A stretch of DNA of 64,000 nt from a virus (lineage: Duplodnaviria; Caudoviricetes), in the IMG/VR virus record IMGVR_UViG_3300021256_000002, positions 128,001 through 192,000 of that record; one strand, 5' to 3'. Below, in pieces: positions 5,611 through 55,544 of the stretch; the stretch's first letter is position 1, and every line of letters starts with the position of its first letter. Under the pieces are notes generated by a model. It did not search any database. It worked only from the letters and a program-made list of their open reading frames with translations, and was not told the origin of the DNA. The translations under genes and the position numbers were made by a program.

Positions 5611-5627
5611 TTCAAATATATAATATA
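5611..5627 (+). promoter_or_regulatory. Early-type promoter TTCAAATATATAATATA
   Basis: Matches the motif recurring about 17 times upstream of non-structural genes. Confidence 0.7.
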
Positions 5628-5665: not shown

Positions 5666-6430
5666 ATGAAAAAGAAAGTTGATGTACATTTTTATGGTAC
5701 TGGCAATGCGTTTAGTACCAGACCGAACACAAGTTTTGGATTCGAATTGTGTACTAATTTAAAGACTATCTTTATCTTTGAAGTTCCTATGAGTACGACT
5801 AAACAGATTATTGATCAAGGGCGCTCAATACATGGCAACTTTGATAATGATAGTATTGCTTCTATCGTTATTTGCATATCGCATCTGCATGAAGATCATG
5901 CTGGTGGGTTATCGACTCTACTAGCATGGCTTAAATATGCTAAGAAGATACCTTTGGAAGATAAGGTTACCATCATTTGCCCAAATATAGATGATATGGA
6001 AACCTATTTGGACTTAACTTTACATTTACCAAATGAACAAAATCCGGTGATTACAGAGCAGTATTATCGTACGCGCCATATGGATACTATGGTAGAAATT
6101 CAGCCAGAAGATGTTGTTCATTGTAAGGATATGAACTCGGTTGGGTTTGATGTGACGGTAACACATCCTGCTGAAAGCAATTCGACTACCCAGTTCAGAT
6201 TCTATTATACTGGCGATTGTATTGAGATGCCCGCTCATATAGTTTCCCAATTCAATAAGCATGATATCGATATTCTTATTAGTGAAATTTCTGAGTTCCC
6301 AATAGAGCCATGGAATGTTCATTGCTCATATGAGTTCTTTAAAAAGAATTTCAACCCAGATGATATTCGTAACCGAATAATATTTGTACATTACAATTTC
6401 GATTATAAGAAAGTATTAAACTTGAATTAA
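5666..6430 (+). CDS. Metallo-beta-lactamase-fold phosphodiesterase (RNase Z/Apyc1-like)
   Basis: GTGNAF, SHLHEDHAGG (HxHxDH), VVH, YTGD, VHC and FVHY metal-binding motifs; 254 aa. Confidence 0.8.
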   Translation: MKKKVDVHFYGTGNAFSTRPNTSFGFELCTNLKTIFIFEVPMSTTKQIIDQGRSIHGNFDNDSIASIVICISHLHEDHAGGLSTLLAWLKYAKKIPLEDKVTIICPNIDDMETYLDLTLHLPNEQNPVITEQYYRTRHMDTMVEIQPEDVVHCKDMNSVGFDVTVTHPAESNSTTQFRFYYTGDCIEMPAHIVSQFNKHDIDILISEISEFPIEPWNVHCSYEFFKKNFNPDDIRNRIIFVHYNFDYKKVLNLN

Positions 6431-6448
6431 TCGATTTCAAAAAGAAAA

Positions 6449-6496
6449 ACCTCCTTTCAAATATATATCATATAGATAGTACATTTGAAAGGAGGT
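6449..6496 (+). promoter_or_regulatory. SD/anti-SD hairpin enclosing an early promoter (cassette A)
   Basis: acctcctttcaaat (6449-6462) is the perfect complement of atttgaaaggaggt (6483-6496); TTCAAATATATATCATA at 6456-6472. Confidence 0.75.
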
Positions 6497-6503
6497 GCTA
6501 AAG

Positions 6504-6677
6504 ATGAACGCTGATGTGCTAAATACAACACAGATCCAGTCTTTGGTTTCGCAGTTGACTATCGCGCATGGTCCAATTGCAGCCAAAGACTGGATCTTAA
6601 CACACATACATCCTGGGGTAAAACAGGCTGACGCAATGTCGGCTATGTTCAGGACGTATAAGAAAATGGTAGCTTAA
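6504..6677 (+). CDS. 57-aa peptide, AK(D/E)WIL family copy A
   Basis: SD gaaaggagg 8 nt before ATG 6504; clearly homologous to 54952-55125 and 55262-55432. Confidence 0.8.
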   Translation: MNADVLNTTQIQSLVSQLTIAHGPIAAKDWILTHIHPGVKQADAMSAMFRTYKKMVA

Positions 6678-6694: not shown

Positions 6695-6739
6695 AAAAAG
6701 GAGTAGCCGAAGCAACGCTCCTTTTTTACTTTTTTGTTA
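6695..6739. repeat. Conserved 3' element: hairpin/terminator plus minus-strand AACA-N6-TA promoter (cassette A)
   Basis: aggagtagccgaagcaacgctccttttttacttttttgtta; near-identical copies at 55149-55188 and 55455-55494. Confidence 0.8.
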
Positions 6740-7192
6740 ATATAATTTAGTATTTAGTACAATCAAATCTTCAACCGTTATATTATTTTTTCTCACGAAT
6801 TCTCTAATCTTTGGATTACTTTGATCTAATTTTTCACCTGTGATTTCGTTAAAGTTTATAGGTGGGCGCCTACCATGTATTATATCAGAGTATATTTGCT
6901 CAGCATGAGCAGTTACCCTTTTACGATATTTATCTAATTCAATTTCTTTTTGTCTTTCGCGTTCAGCTAATTGACGTTTACTCTCTTCAGCAGCCCTTTC
7001 TCGCTCTTTCAACCTTCTATAATCATAGTAGCTTCTAATTAATGGTTCGACGAAGAGCTGTTCAAATATTACCATTACCAAATAAGCAAAACTCAGACAG
7101 AGCATAGTTGGACCATCGATATTGCCAAATAAAAGTAACGCTAATAATATTAATGCTATCCACATAACAGATACCTCCTTGAATAAAAACAA
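6737..7192 (-). CDS. Membrane-anchored hypothetical protein
   Basis: Two hydrophobic N-terminal segments followed by a coiled coil; likely start at MWIALI after an AAGGAGG SD. Confidence 0.6.
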   Translation of the reverse strand: MFLFKEVSVMWIALILLALLLFGNIDGPTMLCLSFAYLVMVIFEQLFVEPLIRSYYDYRRLKERERAAEESKRQLAERERQKEIELDKYRKRVTAHAEQIYSDIIHGRRPPINFNEITGEKLDQSNPKIREFVRKNNITVEDLIVLNTKLY

Positions 7193-7298
7193 AACATACC
7201 GAATCGGTATGTTTTTTATTAATCAGTTGACTAAGCCCTTAGGATATATTAAAAGGGTAACGATTCGTTACCCTTTTAAAGATGATACATGTTCAAGG

Positions 7299-8111
7299 TC
7301 ATTTAACGACTTTGAATTTGCTTAGTTTCGCTTTATGAATTATCTCTTCAGGCGTATCAACCTTATTCATGCTATCTGAGAACTGTAATAACCATTCCCA
7401 AATGCAGCCTTTAACTTCACCAGGATCCATCTTCATACCGATACCACGTTCAACTATATCACGAATGTTTAATTCGGCAAACATGATTATTGCTAATTGA
7501 TGTACTTCAGCATTATCCCGTTCTCCATTCGGTACTTTAGCTAACGAGTTGACCATAGTCGAAAGTTCCGTATATAAACGACCTTTCTTAACTGGGTAGC
7601 TCATTGCTTTAGAATACATCACCAGTTTATTAATCGAGCTTGCCTCTAGTTTTCTAGCGAAAACACTCATTGCTCGAATAGGATCATATTTCTTAGAAGC
7701 AAAGATCCCAGTCTTTCTAATAGATGGAATCACTTCAGTCGCAAGCCATTTCTGGAAAGTTTTCGCTGTTTCATTCTTGGCCTTCATCGCCAATCCATAG
7801 AAAATACTTTCAGGAATGTACGCATCTTCTTTCTTAATTTCAATAGGATCGTAGATATAATCGAAACTATTGAGGTATTTAAGAACACGATTCCAACGAA
7901 TAAACTGATTTGTTTTTCGATCATATTTAGTTTTGTCGCCACTTGTGGCGACAAAAACAGTTTTCTTTTCATCAGTGAATCCAAGTCCGATACAAACATC
8001 AGATAAATTCACATACACTGTACCGTCTTCAACGGTATACCCGCGTACATTAATACTGAGCTCGATATTATCAAAGCTCTCGATTGTCGTTTTTTCATCT
8101 TGAATTTTCAT
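7299..8111 (-). CDS. Bro-N / antirepressor-like DNA-binding protein
   Basis: YIPESIFYGLAMKAKNETAKTFQKWLATEVIPSIRKTG is the Bro-N C-terminal signature; early motif at 8170-8185. Confidence 0.85.
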   Translation of the reverse strand: MKIQDEKTTIESFDNIELSINVRGYTVEDGTVYVNLSDVCIGLGFTDEKKTVFVATSGDKTKYDRKTNQFIRWNRVLKYLNSFDYIYDPIEIKKEDAYIPESIFYGLAMKAKNETAKTFQKWLATEVIPSIRKTGIFASKKYDPIRAMSVFARKLEASSINKLVMYSKAMSYPVKKGRLYTELSTMVNSLAKVPNGERDNAEVHQLAIIMFAELNIRDIVERGIGMKMDPGEVKGCIWEWLLQFSDSMNKVDTPEEIIHKAKLSKFKVVK

Positions 8112-8261
8112 GTCAATTCCTCCTCTATGAATAGAAATATTCTAGCTAAGCTTTTTAACTTAGCTAGAATATAATATATACTTAACTTTTATTTTGAAAA
8201 ATTCGTATTATTAATTTAATTTTATCGTACTATTTACAACTACCCAAAAGGAGGGATTCCT

Positions 8262-16194: not shown

Positions 16195-16342
16195 ATTCCC
16201 ACATCCTTTCTTTTAAATAAGAAGTTTTCCTAAAAGTTAAGAAATATGAATATATATTATATTGGTAGCCAACGAGAAAGTCATAACCAAGAGTAAGAGT
16301 TGTGAATCGCTCGATTTCTATGTTCCGAAGGAGGAATCTGCC

Positions 16343-16738
16343 ATGGCTAACAACAACGAAACCCTCGAGATCACCACCAACCAGGACATTGCTGATGTCT
16401 TGGTCAACCTTGCGTCCGACCTAGAGGAACAAGGCAACTTTGTTGCCCCTCTGCTCAAAAATGATACGGCCGGAGCTAAGTTGGTCTTAGAAAAGCCGAC
16501 ATTCACCCTGATGGAGGTTAGCGGCCTTCTGCAGGACATCGCGGATCGGCTCCGTGAACTGGGTCCAACCGAAGCATGGAAACCTCGGCTAGTAGTCGAA
16601 GGTCCTCGAGAAGGGGACAACATCATCCCGCGGTTTGCGACACTCGCATCCAAAGAGTGCGCCCATGACATTTCGGTAGATGAATATGCGAAGGAAGGGG
16701 GTGAACATTTCGAGCAGTTCACGCTCGAGCTCAAGTAA
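16343..16738 (+). CDS. Early hypothetical protein (GC-rich, acidic)
   Basis: Early motif at 16247-16261, AAGGAGG SD before ATG 16343, terminator 16740-16779. Confidence 0.7.
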   Translation: MANNNETLEITTNQDIADVLVNLASDLEEQGNFVAPLLKNDTAGAKLVLEKPTFTLMEVSGLLQDIADRLRELGPTEAWKPRLVVEGPREGDNIIPRFATLASKECAHDISVDEYAKEGGEHFEQFTLELK

Positions 16739-53249: not shown

Positions 53250-54845
53250 ATGAAGCTTATTCTTTTAGATACAGAAAAATTCTGTCGATTGAATATGCTG
53301 AAAGAAGTAACCAATCCAATTGTACTTGATAGAGGATATACTCCTACATCAGATGGGCTTCTTTCAACATATATTTTTGGCACTTCAACCAAAGATAGAA
53401 AATCTACTTTTGCATATATTGATCTTCATTGCCATGTATTCCATCCGGTAATATATAAGTATATTCGTAGAATGGATAATCGTGTTGAAGGGATAATTGC
53501 TGGTAGAATACGTGTACGTATCGACTCAAAGACTGGGTATTTGATAACTGATGAAGAAGGTAGTACAGGAATTGATTTCCTATACAATAACTGGAACAAA
53601 ATCAAATGGCCTAAGAATGAATCGAAGATGAGATCCGATACGATTGACCTTCTTGCAGCGTATACGAGAAATGAAATTTTCATGAGTAAGCAAATCGTAT
53701 GTCCTGCATTCTATCGAGATGTAAATCTTCAGTCTTCTAAATCTGGTAGACCATCTATTCATAAAATCAACCGTCCGTATTCAAAGCTCATCCAGCTTGC
53801 TGGTACTTTGGATAATGGTGATTTTGCATTCAATTTGAACTATACTAAGTTCATGATACAGAAAACTACGATAGAGATATACGACTACTTCAAGAATCGT
53901 ATAGAGAAAAAACGTGGTTTGATAAAGCAGAATCTTCTGGGTAAGTCAACTGACTACGGTGCTCGTTTGGTAATTACCAATGAAGAGTTCATCTACAATT
54001 CAGTTGAAGAAATGCCGACATCATTCTACAAAACAGGCGTACCTGTTTCGTATTGTATGGCAATGGCAGCACCATTCTTCACTGGATGGATTCAGAATTT
54101 CTTCATTAGGGAATTTGAAGATTACCAATACAAATATCCGGGTTATGATGTAGAAAATAAAAAACCTATATACGTAGAACTTGAAGATCCTAGGATACAA
54201 TTCTCTGATGAGGTTGTACATGAGATGATGGAAGAATACTTACACTCATATGAGCACAGATTCGATCCAATATATCTCAAAACCAAAGATAAGAGATTTC
54301 CTAAGATAACTTTCCGTTTCAAAGGATACAGTGTAGCGGATTCTGAATTCGATCCTCATGACCCAGAGAAATTGTTGAGTCAGCGACCATTTACTTTAAC
54401 TGACTTAATGTACTTAGCTGCTGTTAATATATGTGAAGATAAACACATATATATCACTCGCTATCCGATGTCTGACCATTTAGGTATCTTCCCTTGCGGT
54501 ATAGCGGTATTATCAACTACGGTAACAGAAAAAATGATGATAGACGGAAAAGAATATCCGTTCTACCCAAAAGTTGAAGTTGGAAAAAGCTCTGCAAATG
54601 CATTTAAAGAAGTCTTAACTCTGTCTAATTGTTACTTAAAAGCACTCGGCGGCGACTATGATGGCGACCAAATCACTGGTAAAATAGTATTCTCACAAGA
54701 GGCTAATGCAGAGGCTGAAAGAATCATGCGGTCGTTTACGAATGTACTCGGAATTGATGGTGGTTGCATCAGAAAGACTGAGATTGAAGGCATTCAGACG
54801 TTATACTGCATGAGTCGTTGGAAAAATCCAAACGAAAAATTTTAA
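53250..54845 (+). CDS. RNA polymerase beta' N-terminal catalytic subunit (probably virion RNAP)
   Basis: GLLSTYIFG, KQNLLGKSTDYGARLVI, TRYP and catalytic GGDYDGDQ; late motif gaca-aaatcc-ta at 53216-53227. Confidence 0.92.
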   Translation: MKLILLDTEKFCRLNMLKEVTNPIVLDRGYTPTSDGLLSTYIFGTSTKDRKSTFAYIDLHCHVFHPVIYKYIRRMDNRVEGIIAGRIRVRIDSKTGYLITDEEGSTGIDFLYNNWNKIKWPKNESKMRSDTIDLLAAYTRNEIFMSKQIVCPAFYRDVNLQSSKSGRPSIHKINRPYSKLIQLAGTLDNGDFAFNLNYTKFMIQKTTIEIYDYFKNRIEKKRGLIKQNLLGKSTDYGARLVITNEEFIYNSVEEMPTSFYKTGVPVSYCMAMAAPFFTGWIQNFFIREFEDYQYKYPGYDVENKKPIYVELEDPRIQFSDEVVHEMMEEYLHSYEHRFDPIYLKTKDKRFPKITFRFKGYSVADSEFDPHDPEKLLSQRPFTLTDLMYLAAVNICEDKHIYITRYPMSDHLGIFPCGIAVLSTTVTEKMMIDGKEYPFYPKVEVGKSSANAFKEVLTLSNCYLKALGGDYDGDQITGKIVFSQEANAEAERIMRSFTNVLGIDGGCIRKTEIEGIQTLYCMSRWKNPNEKF

Positions 54846-54853
54846 AATAATAA

Positions 54854-54885
54854 GGTATGATTGCATATGCAATCATACCGTTTTT
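54854..54885 (+). terminator. Intrinsic terminator
   Basis: ggtatgattgc-atat-gcaatcatacc followed by gttttt. Confidence 0.75.
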
Positions 54886-54894
54886 ACTCAGTTA

Positions 54895-54944
54895 ATCCTC
54901 CTTTCAAATATATATTATATCTGTATCATACAAGAAAGGAGGAT
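54895..54944 (+). promoter_or_regulatory. SD/anti-SD hairpin enclosing an early promoter (cassette B)
   Basis: atcctcctttc (54895-54905) pairs with gaaaggaggat (54934-54944); TTCAAATATATATTATA at 54903-54919. Confidence 0.75.
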
Positions 54945-54951
54945 GGTTCAA

Positions 54952-55125
54952 ATGAGTGCTGATATTCTCAGCATTTCTCAGATCCAGGATTTGGTATCTG
55001 AGTTGACCTTTGCTAAAGGTCCAATCGCCGCTAAAGATTGGATTTTGACGCATATCCAGAATGGATATAAGCAGTCTGTTGCAATGGCGACCCTGATGTC
55101 AACTTGGATCGCCTTAACTTCATAG
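54952..55125 (+). CDS. 57-aa peptide, AK(D/E)WIL family copy B
   Basis: GPIAAKDWILTHI identical to copy A; ATG 54952 at normal SD spacing. Confidence 0.8.
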   Translation: MSADILSISQIQDLVSELTFAKGPIAAKDWILTHIQNGYKQSVAMATLMSTWIALTS

Positions 55126-55148
55126 CCAATTATGAAGTTAAACCTAAG

Positions 55149-55188
55149 AGGAGTAGCCGAAGCAACGCTCCTCTTTACTTTTTTGTTA
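55149..55188. repeat. Conserved 3' element (cassette B)
   Basis: aggagtagccgaagcaacgctcctctttacttttttgtta. Confidence 0.8.
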
Positions 55189-55207
55189 ATATATTGAAAA
55201 ATTAAAC

Positions 55208-55253
55208 CCTCCTTTCAAGTATATATTATATCTATATCATACAAGAAAGGAGG
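55208..55253 (+). promoter_or_regulatory. SD/anti-SD hairpin enclosing an early promoter (cassette C)
   Basis: cctcctttc (55208-55216) pairs with gaaaggagg (55245-55253); TTCAAGTATATATTATA at 55214-55230. Confidence 0.7.
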
Positions 55254-55261
55254 TGAGTCCA

Positions 55262-55432
55262 ATGAGTAGTTGCCTTAGTGCAGTAAATTGTAGGGAATTC
55301 GTATTTGCTCTTATCCAGCAATATGGTCATAGAGCAAAGGAATGGATTCTTGATAACATTCCTCCAGGATACTATCAAGCATTAGCCCTGCATGATTATG
55401 CTGACTACTATTGGTATACTATGGGTAAATAA
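55262..55432 (+). CDS. 56-aa peptide, AK(D/E)WIL family copy C (absent from ORF track)
   Basis: MSSCLSAVNCREFVFALIQQYGHRAKEWILDNIPPGYYQALALHDYADYYWYTMGK; same cassette architecture as A and B. Confidence 0.75.
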   Translation: MSSCLSAVNCREFVFALIQQYGHRAKEWILDNIPPGYYQALALHDYADYYWYTMGK

Positions 55433-55454
55433 CTCGTTGGTATAACCATGGAAG

Positions 55455-55494
55455 AGGAGTAGCCGAAGCAACGCTCCTCTTTACTTTTTTGTTA
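55455..55494. repeat. Conserved 3' element (cassette C)
   Basis: aggagtagccgaagcaacgctcctctttacttttttgtta, identical to copy B. Confidence 0.8.
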
Positions 55495-55544
55495 GTGTAG
55501 ATAATTAAGTAAATGAAATCATATACTAAAGGAGATGTTTAATC

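Follow-up and report, generated by a model that had tools for sequence, protein, structure and literature searches.

A 64,000-nucleotide (nt) stretch of a tailed phage genome (the window; bases 128,001-192,000 of the 253,296-bp IMG/VR record IMGVR_UViG_3300021256_000002, which carries direct terminal repeats) contains three small gene cassettes, here called A, B and C. In each of them an early promoter of the type known from phage AR9 lies in the loop of a hairpin whose 3' arm carries the Shine-Dalgarno (SD) sequence of the gene and whose 5' arm is the complement of that sequence (anti-SD). The hairpins are genuine, non-random structures. They would most economically be explained by an isoform-specific translational lock of the kind known from the T4 genes e and soc, here built around an AR9-type early promoter, and we hold this reading with evenly balanced confidence.

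The three cassettes share one layout on the plus strand. The anti-SD 9-mer CCTCCTTTC abuts the promoter core AAATATATAT(T/C)AT (beginning with AAG in C), which is followed by a 15-nt spacer and the SD GAAAGGAGG; 8-9 nt further on, an ATG opens an open reading frame (ORF) of 56-57 codons, and an identical 22-nt hairpin with a T-run closes the unit. The 5' hairpins span positions 6449-6496 in A, 54895-54944 in B and 55208-55253 in C. In the window, CCTCCTTTC and its complement occur eight times, compared with 0.34-0.44 expected from shuffled sequences, and six of these eight copies make up the three arm pairs (6450-6458/6487-6495 in A, 54897-54905/54934-54942 in B and 55208-55216/55245-55253 in C), with an identical gap of 28 nt between the paired 9-mers in every cassette. 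With their flanks, the perfect stems reach 14 bp in A (5' arm 6449-6462, which covers the first 4 nt of the promoter core; 3' arm 6483-6496, with the SD at 6487-6495), 11 bp in B (54895-54905 and 54934-54944, with the SD at 54934-54942) and 9 bp in C (55208-55216 and 55245-55253, where the 3' arm is the SD itself), and they take in the whole GGAGG core of the SD. A preliminary description of this DNA, made from its letters alone, had reported an anti-SD of this kind beside the early promoter and stems of these lengths, which is confirmed by the counts, the shuffles and the folds. It had also remarked that the flanking bases differ between the copies and nevertheless stay complementary. This is true, but it concerns just one extra pair in A, two in B and none in C, and is not significant alone.

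The plus-strand RNA folds of A, B and C had energies of -22.7, -19.5 and -17.7 kcal/mol (z -6.7, -3.6 and -4.2, respectively), and the minus-strand folds -26.9, -20.5 and -21.8 kcal/mol (z -8.6, -4.6 and -4.4). None of 200 shuffles folded as stably as the cassette hairpins. All nine SD bases are paired within one arm of a stable local hairpin, which is the arrangement expected of a lock of the T4 e/soc type.

Examination of the whole genome revealed that this arrangement is unique to the three cassettes. The exact paired pattern was found at only three sites across the 253,296 bp, all of them cassettes. When 60 early-promoter cores were ranked by the maximum length of a perfect inverted repeat that encloses the promoter, the cassettes came first, second and fourth; the repeats at the remaining cores were AT-rich and no longer than 10 bp, so that the cassettes are the sole GC-rich ones. 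The observation that the other early promoters lack this anti-SD, made previously for the window, therefore holds genome-wide. We also scored the burial of the SD by upstream sequence at 279 SD-plus-start sites, and the cassettes fell within the top six, the rest of these top sites being questionable gene calls or terminator hairpins directly adjacent to an SD. Finally, 13 of the 16 copies of GAAAGGAGG in the genome precede a start codon; the three that do not, apart from a TTG frame in A, are the cassette minus-strand copies.

The consequence of this geometry for different transcripts was analyzed by partition-function folding of RNAs begun 60 or 150 nt upstream and of RNAs begun at the predicted +1. 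In all three cassettes the mean unpaired probability of the SD was 0.00 in the upstream-start RNAs, whereas it was 0.61 (A), 0.77 (B) and 0.66 (C) in the RNAs begun at the cassette's own promoter. The lock geometry and the contrast between RNA isoforms put forward in the preliminary description, with the anti-SD upstream of the core and the predicted start in the loop, are thus both supported.

The promoters were recognized by comparison with AR9, whose early promoters, mapped by differential RNA sequencing (dRNA-seq) and primer extension, follow the rule AAATATATATTAT-(6N)-G+1, and whose late promoters read AACA-(6N)-TA/G (PMC5312081). Because the AR9 early promoters are active without new protein synthesis, they are considered to be read by the injected virion RNA polymerase (RNAP) (PMC5312081). 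Across the whole genome of the present phage, 57 non-cassette sites with at most one mismatch to the 13-mer gave the consensus ATTTnnCAAnnnnnATTTC, then the 13-mer, then AnnnnnG; that is, the genome's own early consensus is the AR9 rule, with the G seven positions past the 13-mer. The late motif was found ahead of the capsid, sheath and other structural genes. In the cassettes, the early promoters occupy plus-strand positions 6459-6478 in A (core 6459-6471 with one mismatch, T11C; predicted +1 at 6478), 54906-54925 in B (perfect core 54906-54918, with the maximum score on the genome's matrix; predicted +1 at 54925) and 55217-55236 in C (core 55217-55229 with one mismatch, A3G; predicted +1 at 55236). 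By homology to the mapped AR9 promoters, we infer that the cassette transcripts start at these positions, which lie in the loops; the SD begins 8-9 nt downstream of them, and the anti-SD arm ends 16-22 nt upstream. The predicted own-promoter leaders of 26-27 nt resemble the shortest AR9 leaders.

On the basis of this layout, a lock might operate as follows. A plus-strand RNA begun upstream would carry both arms, and its SD, once transcribed, would fold back on the anti-SD 28 nt behind it, an arm that resembles the tail of 16S rRNA; the folded long RNA would then exclude 30S subunits. Such long RNAs might come from read-through from the early metallo-beta-lactamase-fold gene in A, from leakage past the terminator after the probably late virion-RNAP gene in B and from leakage past the terminator of B in C. 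The cassette's own early promoter in the loop, presumably read by the injected virion RNAP, would give an RNA that begins 8-9 nt before the SD, lacks the anti-SD and could be translated. Since only the own-promoter RNA would escape the lock, synthesis of the peptide would be tied to the firing of the cassette's early promoter. We prefer the lock over a terminator or an operator because a lock needs the SD as an arm, whereas a terminator or an operator would use the SD by coincidence.

Comparison of the three copies provided information on which parts of the cassette are constrained. The encoded products are 56% identical in amino acids between A and B and 31% between A and C, which identifies the genes as three paralogues. 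The spacing is fixed among the cassettes, and the 5' block is identical at 40 to 44 of 46 positions between copies. Identity is about 50% in the 20-nt upstream flank, 100% in all pairs for CCTCC, TTTC and the SD, 85-92% in the promoter core, 40-47% in the core-to-SD spacer for A versus B/C (14/15 for B versus C), 38-63% in coding-sequence (CDS) nucleotides (63% for A/B, 43% for A/C and 38% for B/C) and complete (22/22, all pairs) in the 3' hairpin. Judged by the sequences of A versus B/C, it is precisely the two arms and the promoter that seem to be under constraint. In the 5' block (54895-54944 versus 55207-55254), 44 of 46 nt are common to B and C, as is the whole 3' hairpin (55146-55190 versus 55452-55496), with only 38% identity in the CDS. 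Such near-identical modules around diverged coding sequences indicate gene conversion or module exchange between these neighbours.

A strain variant of cassette A (L011) was found in another metagenome. Between the two strains, ORF A has a synonymous divergence (dS) of 0.25 and a ratio of nonsynonymous to synonymous divergence (dN/dS) of 0.13, so that its peptide is under purifying selection. Over 66 nt, from the stop codon of the preceding gene through the last base of the hairpin (6431-6496), the variant differs from the window by a single change, C to T at 6483, which converts an A-C mismatch of the plus strand (G-U on the minus strand) into a Watson-Crick pair and lengthens the stem; the 5' arm is the same in both strains. 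Near the start codon (985-990 of L011), ORF A begins with GTG instead of ATG and there is one change between the SD and the start, with the hairpin arms unchanged. The metagenome scan gave this one near-identical cassette A and one chance match.

Several observations weigh against a lock. The phage is uncultured, and the case rests on sequence and folding. Through gene conversion, the anti-SD could have travelled with the promoter even if the pairing itself was not selected, which weakens the argument from conservation. Real covariation is minimal (one or two flank pairs and one loop change) because the copies are paralogues plus one near-identical strain, and the remaining non-coding stretches in the L011 comparison are about 93% identical, so that the contrast with 6431-6496 is borderline. 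The promoters themselves deviate from the rule: the T11C in the core of A is unique among the sites, C carries A3G, and for the AR9 virion RNAP, at least one single deviation in the early promoter is reported not to be tolerated (PMC5312081). The predicted +1 is A, not G, in all three cassettes, and the upstream ATTTnnCAA element is absent at its normal spacing; a similar stretch is present in A and C but is displaced upstream by about 6-8 nt. Because the gene that precedes A is early as well, no temporal logic applies there, and the terminators ahead of B and of C imply that read-through into these two may be small. In addition, a lock would have no need of the conserved A-rich/T-rich run beside hairpins A and C.

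As an alternative, selection might act on the repeat chiefly through the minus strand, where it would form a terminator or a protective 3' hairpin that ends a late antisense RNA begun at AACA-N6-TA. At A, it would also stop convergent transcripts of the minus-strand genes at 6737-8111 just past the SD, and a lock could coexist with it. We give this alternative a limited but appreciable probability. The putative antisense promoters belong to the 3' modules (plus-strand positions 6696-6740 in A, 55146-55190 in B and 55452-55496 in C), in which the hairpin and its T-run (hairpins at 6700-6721, 55150-55171 and 55456-55477) are accompanied by a minus-strand AACA-N6-TA (6727-6738, 55176-55187 and 55482-55493). 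The 22-mer of these modules has three copies only in the genome. At all three modules the antisense late motif has the extended form AACA-N4-AGTA, as it does ahead of structural genes, and this form is enriched genome-wide (23 versus 10±3); the loose form RACA-N6-TR is depleted in the window (97 versus 168±13 in shuffles), from which it appears that spurious late promoters are selected against. As a precedent, AR9 has late promoters antisense to some of its genes (PMC5312081). The minus-strand folds are as stable as or stabler than the plus-strand folds, and that of A comprises 17 pairs plus 4 around a 5-nt loop (a near-continuous helix of 21 pairs, -26.9 kcal/mol, z -8.6), in which three extra pairs depend on a G-U that exists only on the minus strand and is Watson-Crick in L011. 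The U-rich runs noted previously past the minus-strand hairpins of A and C are indeed there: that of A (6438-6448, minus strand) has 10 T in 11 nt, is unchanged between the strains and is a possible terminator tail, and that of C (55197-55207) has 8 T in 11 and is interrupted. A bidirectional terminator lies 18 nt beyond B, hairpin-plus-T terminators are enriched in the phage genome, and an early minus-strand operon (8111-6737) converges on cassette A. On the other hand, B keeps the repeat without a T-run, the outer loops are 20-28 nt long, so that the terminator scan flags none of the three, and an antisense RNA at A would meet a hairpin and TTTTT at its own 5' end, so that little of it may reach the repeat. 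Moreover, the A-rich run may be all that is left, in a shifted position, of the usual promoter element upstream, and a terminator has no need for the SD as an arm, which leaves the use of the SD unexplained. Thus, of the antisense terminator suggested in the preliminary description, the part concerning A is credible (21-pair hairpin and T-rich run), that concerning C is weaker but possible, and B fails for want of a T-run. A terminator or 3'-bookend role is therefore not general, and at A, perhaps also at C, it is likely an add-on to the lock. As for the plus strand, an intrinsic terminator was rejected, as no T-run follows the stem.

The remaining alternatives appear less probable. The 5' block might be a module similar to the promoter-early stem-loops (PeSLs) of T4-type phages, consisting of early promoter, stem-loop and SD, which would attenuate or insulate against upstream plus-strand transcription, with the burial of the SD as a by-product and the conserved sequence serving as homology for the shuffling of orphan genes. 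The three copies form a repeated unit, in which orphan genes with diverged CDSs stand between near-identical 5' and 3' modules, as would be expected from such a module. We nevertheless consider it unlikely, since the plus strand lacks a T-run after the hairpin, the three copies are confined to one genome with no indel or mini-circle evidence, separate proper terminators are already present upstream of B and C, and PeSL stems do not use the SD. A greater doubt attaches to the idea that the anti-SD is a functionless relic, for instance an SD left behind by a divergent gene that has disappeared from a palindromic promoter formerly active in both directions, and spread by gene conversion. The promoter core is nearly palindromic, concerted evolution is evident, ordinary promoter-plus-SD units read backwards resemble the left half of a cassette (for example, full-genome 246230/246248), and most IMG/VR matches to the architecture are divergent gene pairs. 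However, no minus-strand ORF is common to the three copies, CCTCC is perfectly kept between A and B/C though the neighbouring flank and spacer are randomized, and the stem in A has been lengthened rather than decayed, so that a relic is in our judgement very improbable. Slightly more remote still is an action of the repeat at the level of DNA or protein, either as inverted half-sites for a dimeric regulator that would clamp the promoter or as an RNase III-type site in long RNAs. Perfect inverted 9-mers do stand at a fixed distance around the promoter in all copies, and the minus-strand helix of A reaches about 21 bp; but the centres of the half-sites are separated by 37 bp (about 3.5 helical turns) and so face opposite sides of the DNA, no candidate for the regulator is known, the half-site is simply the complement of the host SD, and the plus-strand stems are short for RNase III. 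Neither version has specific support of its own.

Independently of these alternatives, we examined whether the anti-SD could at present serve as the SD of a divergent gene, with a start codon sought 5-12 nt after it, and rejected this candidate. The sole frame in A has 29 codons, begins with TTG, lies antisense to the upstream gene and has no conserved counterpart in B or C; for B, the closest start codon is 20 nt away, within a terminator stem; and C has none. The antisense ORFs 6437-6607, 54904-55053 and 55232-55378 read the repeat in different frames, have unrelated sequences and are most likely spurious.

The two ends of each cassette might be parts of a larger design. It is conceivable, though rather doubtful, that one self-contained 'early-only' expression cassette is made up of two halves, the promoter-in-hairpin at the 5' end and, at the 3' end, the hairpin with its antisense late promoter. 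The two phage RNAPs would then act as a clock: the injected virion RNAP would fire inside the lock and yield a translatable mRNA, and the later non-virion RNAP would make a hairpin-bookended antisense RNA ending at the same inverted repeat. Late sense read-through would be translationally dead, and the conserved ends would allow orphan genes to be swapped.

The genes upstream of the cassettes bear directly on timing. The metallo-beta-lactamase-fold gene upstream of A (5666-6430) has its own early promoter at 5614, and no terminator was found between this gene and the cassette in the terminator scan. Read-through into A is therefore likely, yet it would be early too, and a lock at A would consequently separate two early RNA isoforms and not time classes. 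Upstream of B lies the virion-RNAP beta'-N gene (53250-54845), a homologue of AR9 g145, which is annotated as a virion-RNAP subunit; this gene has no early core upstream but a GACA-N6-TA motif, and its homology to a virion-RNAP subunit suggests that it is probably late. A bidirectional terminator-like hairpin (54854-54879, flagged on both strands) stands between it and cassette B, and cassette C follows the terminator of B. The suggestion that timing is reversed relative to T4 is thus plausible for B and C, with a probably late virion-RNAP gene upstream and provided that the terminators leak, and does not hold at A, where the upstream gene is early.

Known systems offer both parallels and differences. 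In T4, the genes e, soc, 49 and I-TevI have SD-sequestering hairpins with a proximal promoter inside the 5' arm or at it, and effects of about 100-fold were reported for e (PMC3014915). The cassettes resemble these genes in that the SD is predicted to be buried in the upstream-start RNA, the transcript of the proximal promoter would lack the 5' arm and small or accessory phage genes are concerned. In T4, however, the proximal promoter is late (host RNAP with gp55) and the early/middle read-through RNA is locked, whereas the cassettes have an AR9-type early proximal promoter, presumably used by the injected multisubunit virion RNAP, and their locked RNAs would be late (B and C) or co-early (A). 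The cassettes, known here from sequence and folding, also differ from T4 in that their 5' arm imitates the 3' tail of 16S rRNA over a full 9 nt. In the sigma-B regulon of Bacillus subtilis, internal promoters free ribosome-binding sites from long-range structure, with effects of up to 100-fold (bioRxiv 10.1101/2021.03.06.434181). There, as proposed here, the promoter of origin decides on translation, the long isoform being repressed and the short one translated, in a Firmicute setting with strong SDs; that system is cellular, based on a sigma factor and made of extended, varied structures, whereas the cassettes have one compact, repeated anti-SD/SD hairpin. By analogy, the calculated strengths of the cassette hairpins are within the range that gives about 100-fold effects in T4 e and the sigma-B isoforms.

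The closest analogue of the cassette organization and of its concerted evolution is provided by the PeSLs, which are conserved promoter/stem-loop/SD units that flank ORFans in T4-type phages, terminate upstream transcription and allow genes to be moved by recombination (PMC2839356, PMC4122927). In both cases an early promoter, a stem-loop and an SD stand beside orphan early genes, and the module is far better conserved than the gene. PeSLs have G-run/C-run terminator-like stems, which are located in the sigma-70 promoter or just upstream of it and do not include the SD, and they occur by the dozens per genome with demonstrated recombination, in contrast with three copies and no evidence of mobility here. 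The cassettes share with AR9 the early 13-mer and its spacing to the predicted +1, the late AACA-N6-TA/G motif and, putatively, the late antisense promoters (PMC5312081). With intrinsic and bidirectional terminators they share a GC-containing hairpin followed by a minus-strand T-run at A and C, but differ from them by outer loops of 20-28 nt that hold a promoter and by the lack of a T-run at B and on the plus strand.

We further examined how widely the device is distributed. No CTCC...early core...GGAG arrangement was found in the AR9 genome, and in five related genomes (about 1 Mb in total) CCTCC-N18-48-GGAGG was matched only once, at a site that looks coding. The same pattern has eight matches in the present phage genome, namely the three cassettes, four in a repeated leader element and one in coding sequence. 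An IMG/VR-wide scan for an anti-SD, an AR9-type core and an SD returned four sites, three of which were divergent gene pairs and the fourth an unrelated contig with 45% GC. In this contig (IMGVR_UViG_3300031555_010530, positions 57-112), a 9-bp repeat, AAATCCTCC/GGAGGATTT, brackets an AT-rich core-like 13-mer ahead of a gene whose N-terminus looks resolvase-like from its sequence; as a single match in 2.9 million contigs, it is likely due to chance. Exact-pattern scans of IMG/VR and GTDB genomes with the 5' and 3' modules gave zero matches. On this evidence, the device seems restricted to this phage lineage.

Post-transcriptional control in jumbo phages with two RNAPs of their own is almost unexplored, the work on AR9 being promoter mapping. 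If the lock is real, the translation of some early orphan genes would be tied to the promoter, hence to the polymerase, that made the RNA; the T4 principle would be extended to a very different transcription system; and a promoter nested in an anti-SD/SD hairpin would make a compact, portable part of 46 nt. The arrangement also marks three orphan early proteins as unusually insulated. If the lock fails, the region remains a clear case in which regulatory modules evolve in concert while the orphan genes between them diverge.

The products of the cassettes are small. ORF A (6504-6677, plus strand) encodes an orphan three-helix protein of 57 amino acids; ORF B (54952-55125, plus strand) encodes its paralogue, also of 57 amino acids, for which the AlphaFold model has three helices and a mean predicted local distance difference test (pLDDT) score of 92; and ORF C (55262-55432, plus strand) encodes a distant paralogue of 56 amino acids. 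No Pfam family above cutoff, no significant fold neighbour in PDB or BFVD and no Atlas neighbour was found for the cassette peptides, and homologues were lacking in IMG/VR; among 5.8 billion proteins, only variants at ≥90% identity were detected. A toxic or host-takeover function, as had been suggested, is thus unsupported for these orphan proteins, and the evidence speaks neither for nor against toxicity. It should be noted that some database gene calls read through the TAG stop of cassette B (55123-55125) and give 81-amino-acid products across the terminator. These calls are probably gene-caller artefacts of alternative-code settings; the long ORFs of the window are intact under translation table 11.

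The gene content of the window includes split multisubunit RNAP subunits, large terminase, tail sheath, major head protein and a GroEL-like protein. Among cultured phages, this one is closest to the AR9/PBS1 group and to other jumbo phages of Firmicutes (Goe21, BpSp, Listeria LPJP1 and Staphylococcus S6). The beta'-N subunit shares just about 32-36% amino-acid identity with these relatives, and the phage is a distant AR9/PBS1 relative. Its GC content is 35-42%. No tRNA genes were found in the window, and there were no Rfam matches at the gathering threshold in its entire length.

Some further features of the early promoters of this phage were observed. A second class has CCTAAAAGTT upstream in place of ATTTnnCAA, and TTGGTAG in the start region; it is represented in the window at 16210-16345 (plus strand) and in the full genome at 16445(-), 101260(-), 110270(+), 236596(-) and 16029(-). 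Promoters of this class precede a conserved leader of about 100 nt with its own CCTCC...GGGAGG hairpin, which has about six copies in the genome; the leader is not a tRNA, and its copy in the window has no Rfam match. Perfect hairpins of 11-16 bp were found at the predicted +1 of several early promoters (window 8137-8172, minus strand; full-genome 50304(+), 71138(+) and 115204(-)), and those at window 8137-8172 and full-genome 50304 have nearly the same stem; such hairpins could be 5'-terminal stabilizers or attenuators. Outside the window, at full-genome 74225-74290 (plus strand), another early promoter is enclosed by an AT-rich inverted repeat of 10 bp (TTTCAATATC/GATATTGAAA), which covers the first four bases of the GAAAGGAGG of the gene and makes a weak partial analogue of the cassette lock. 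Finally, at full-genome 31612(-) and 40397(-), also outside the window, an SD lies within the 3' arm of the terminator hairpin of the upstream gene, representing further coupling of RNA structure to ribosome access in this phage.

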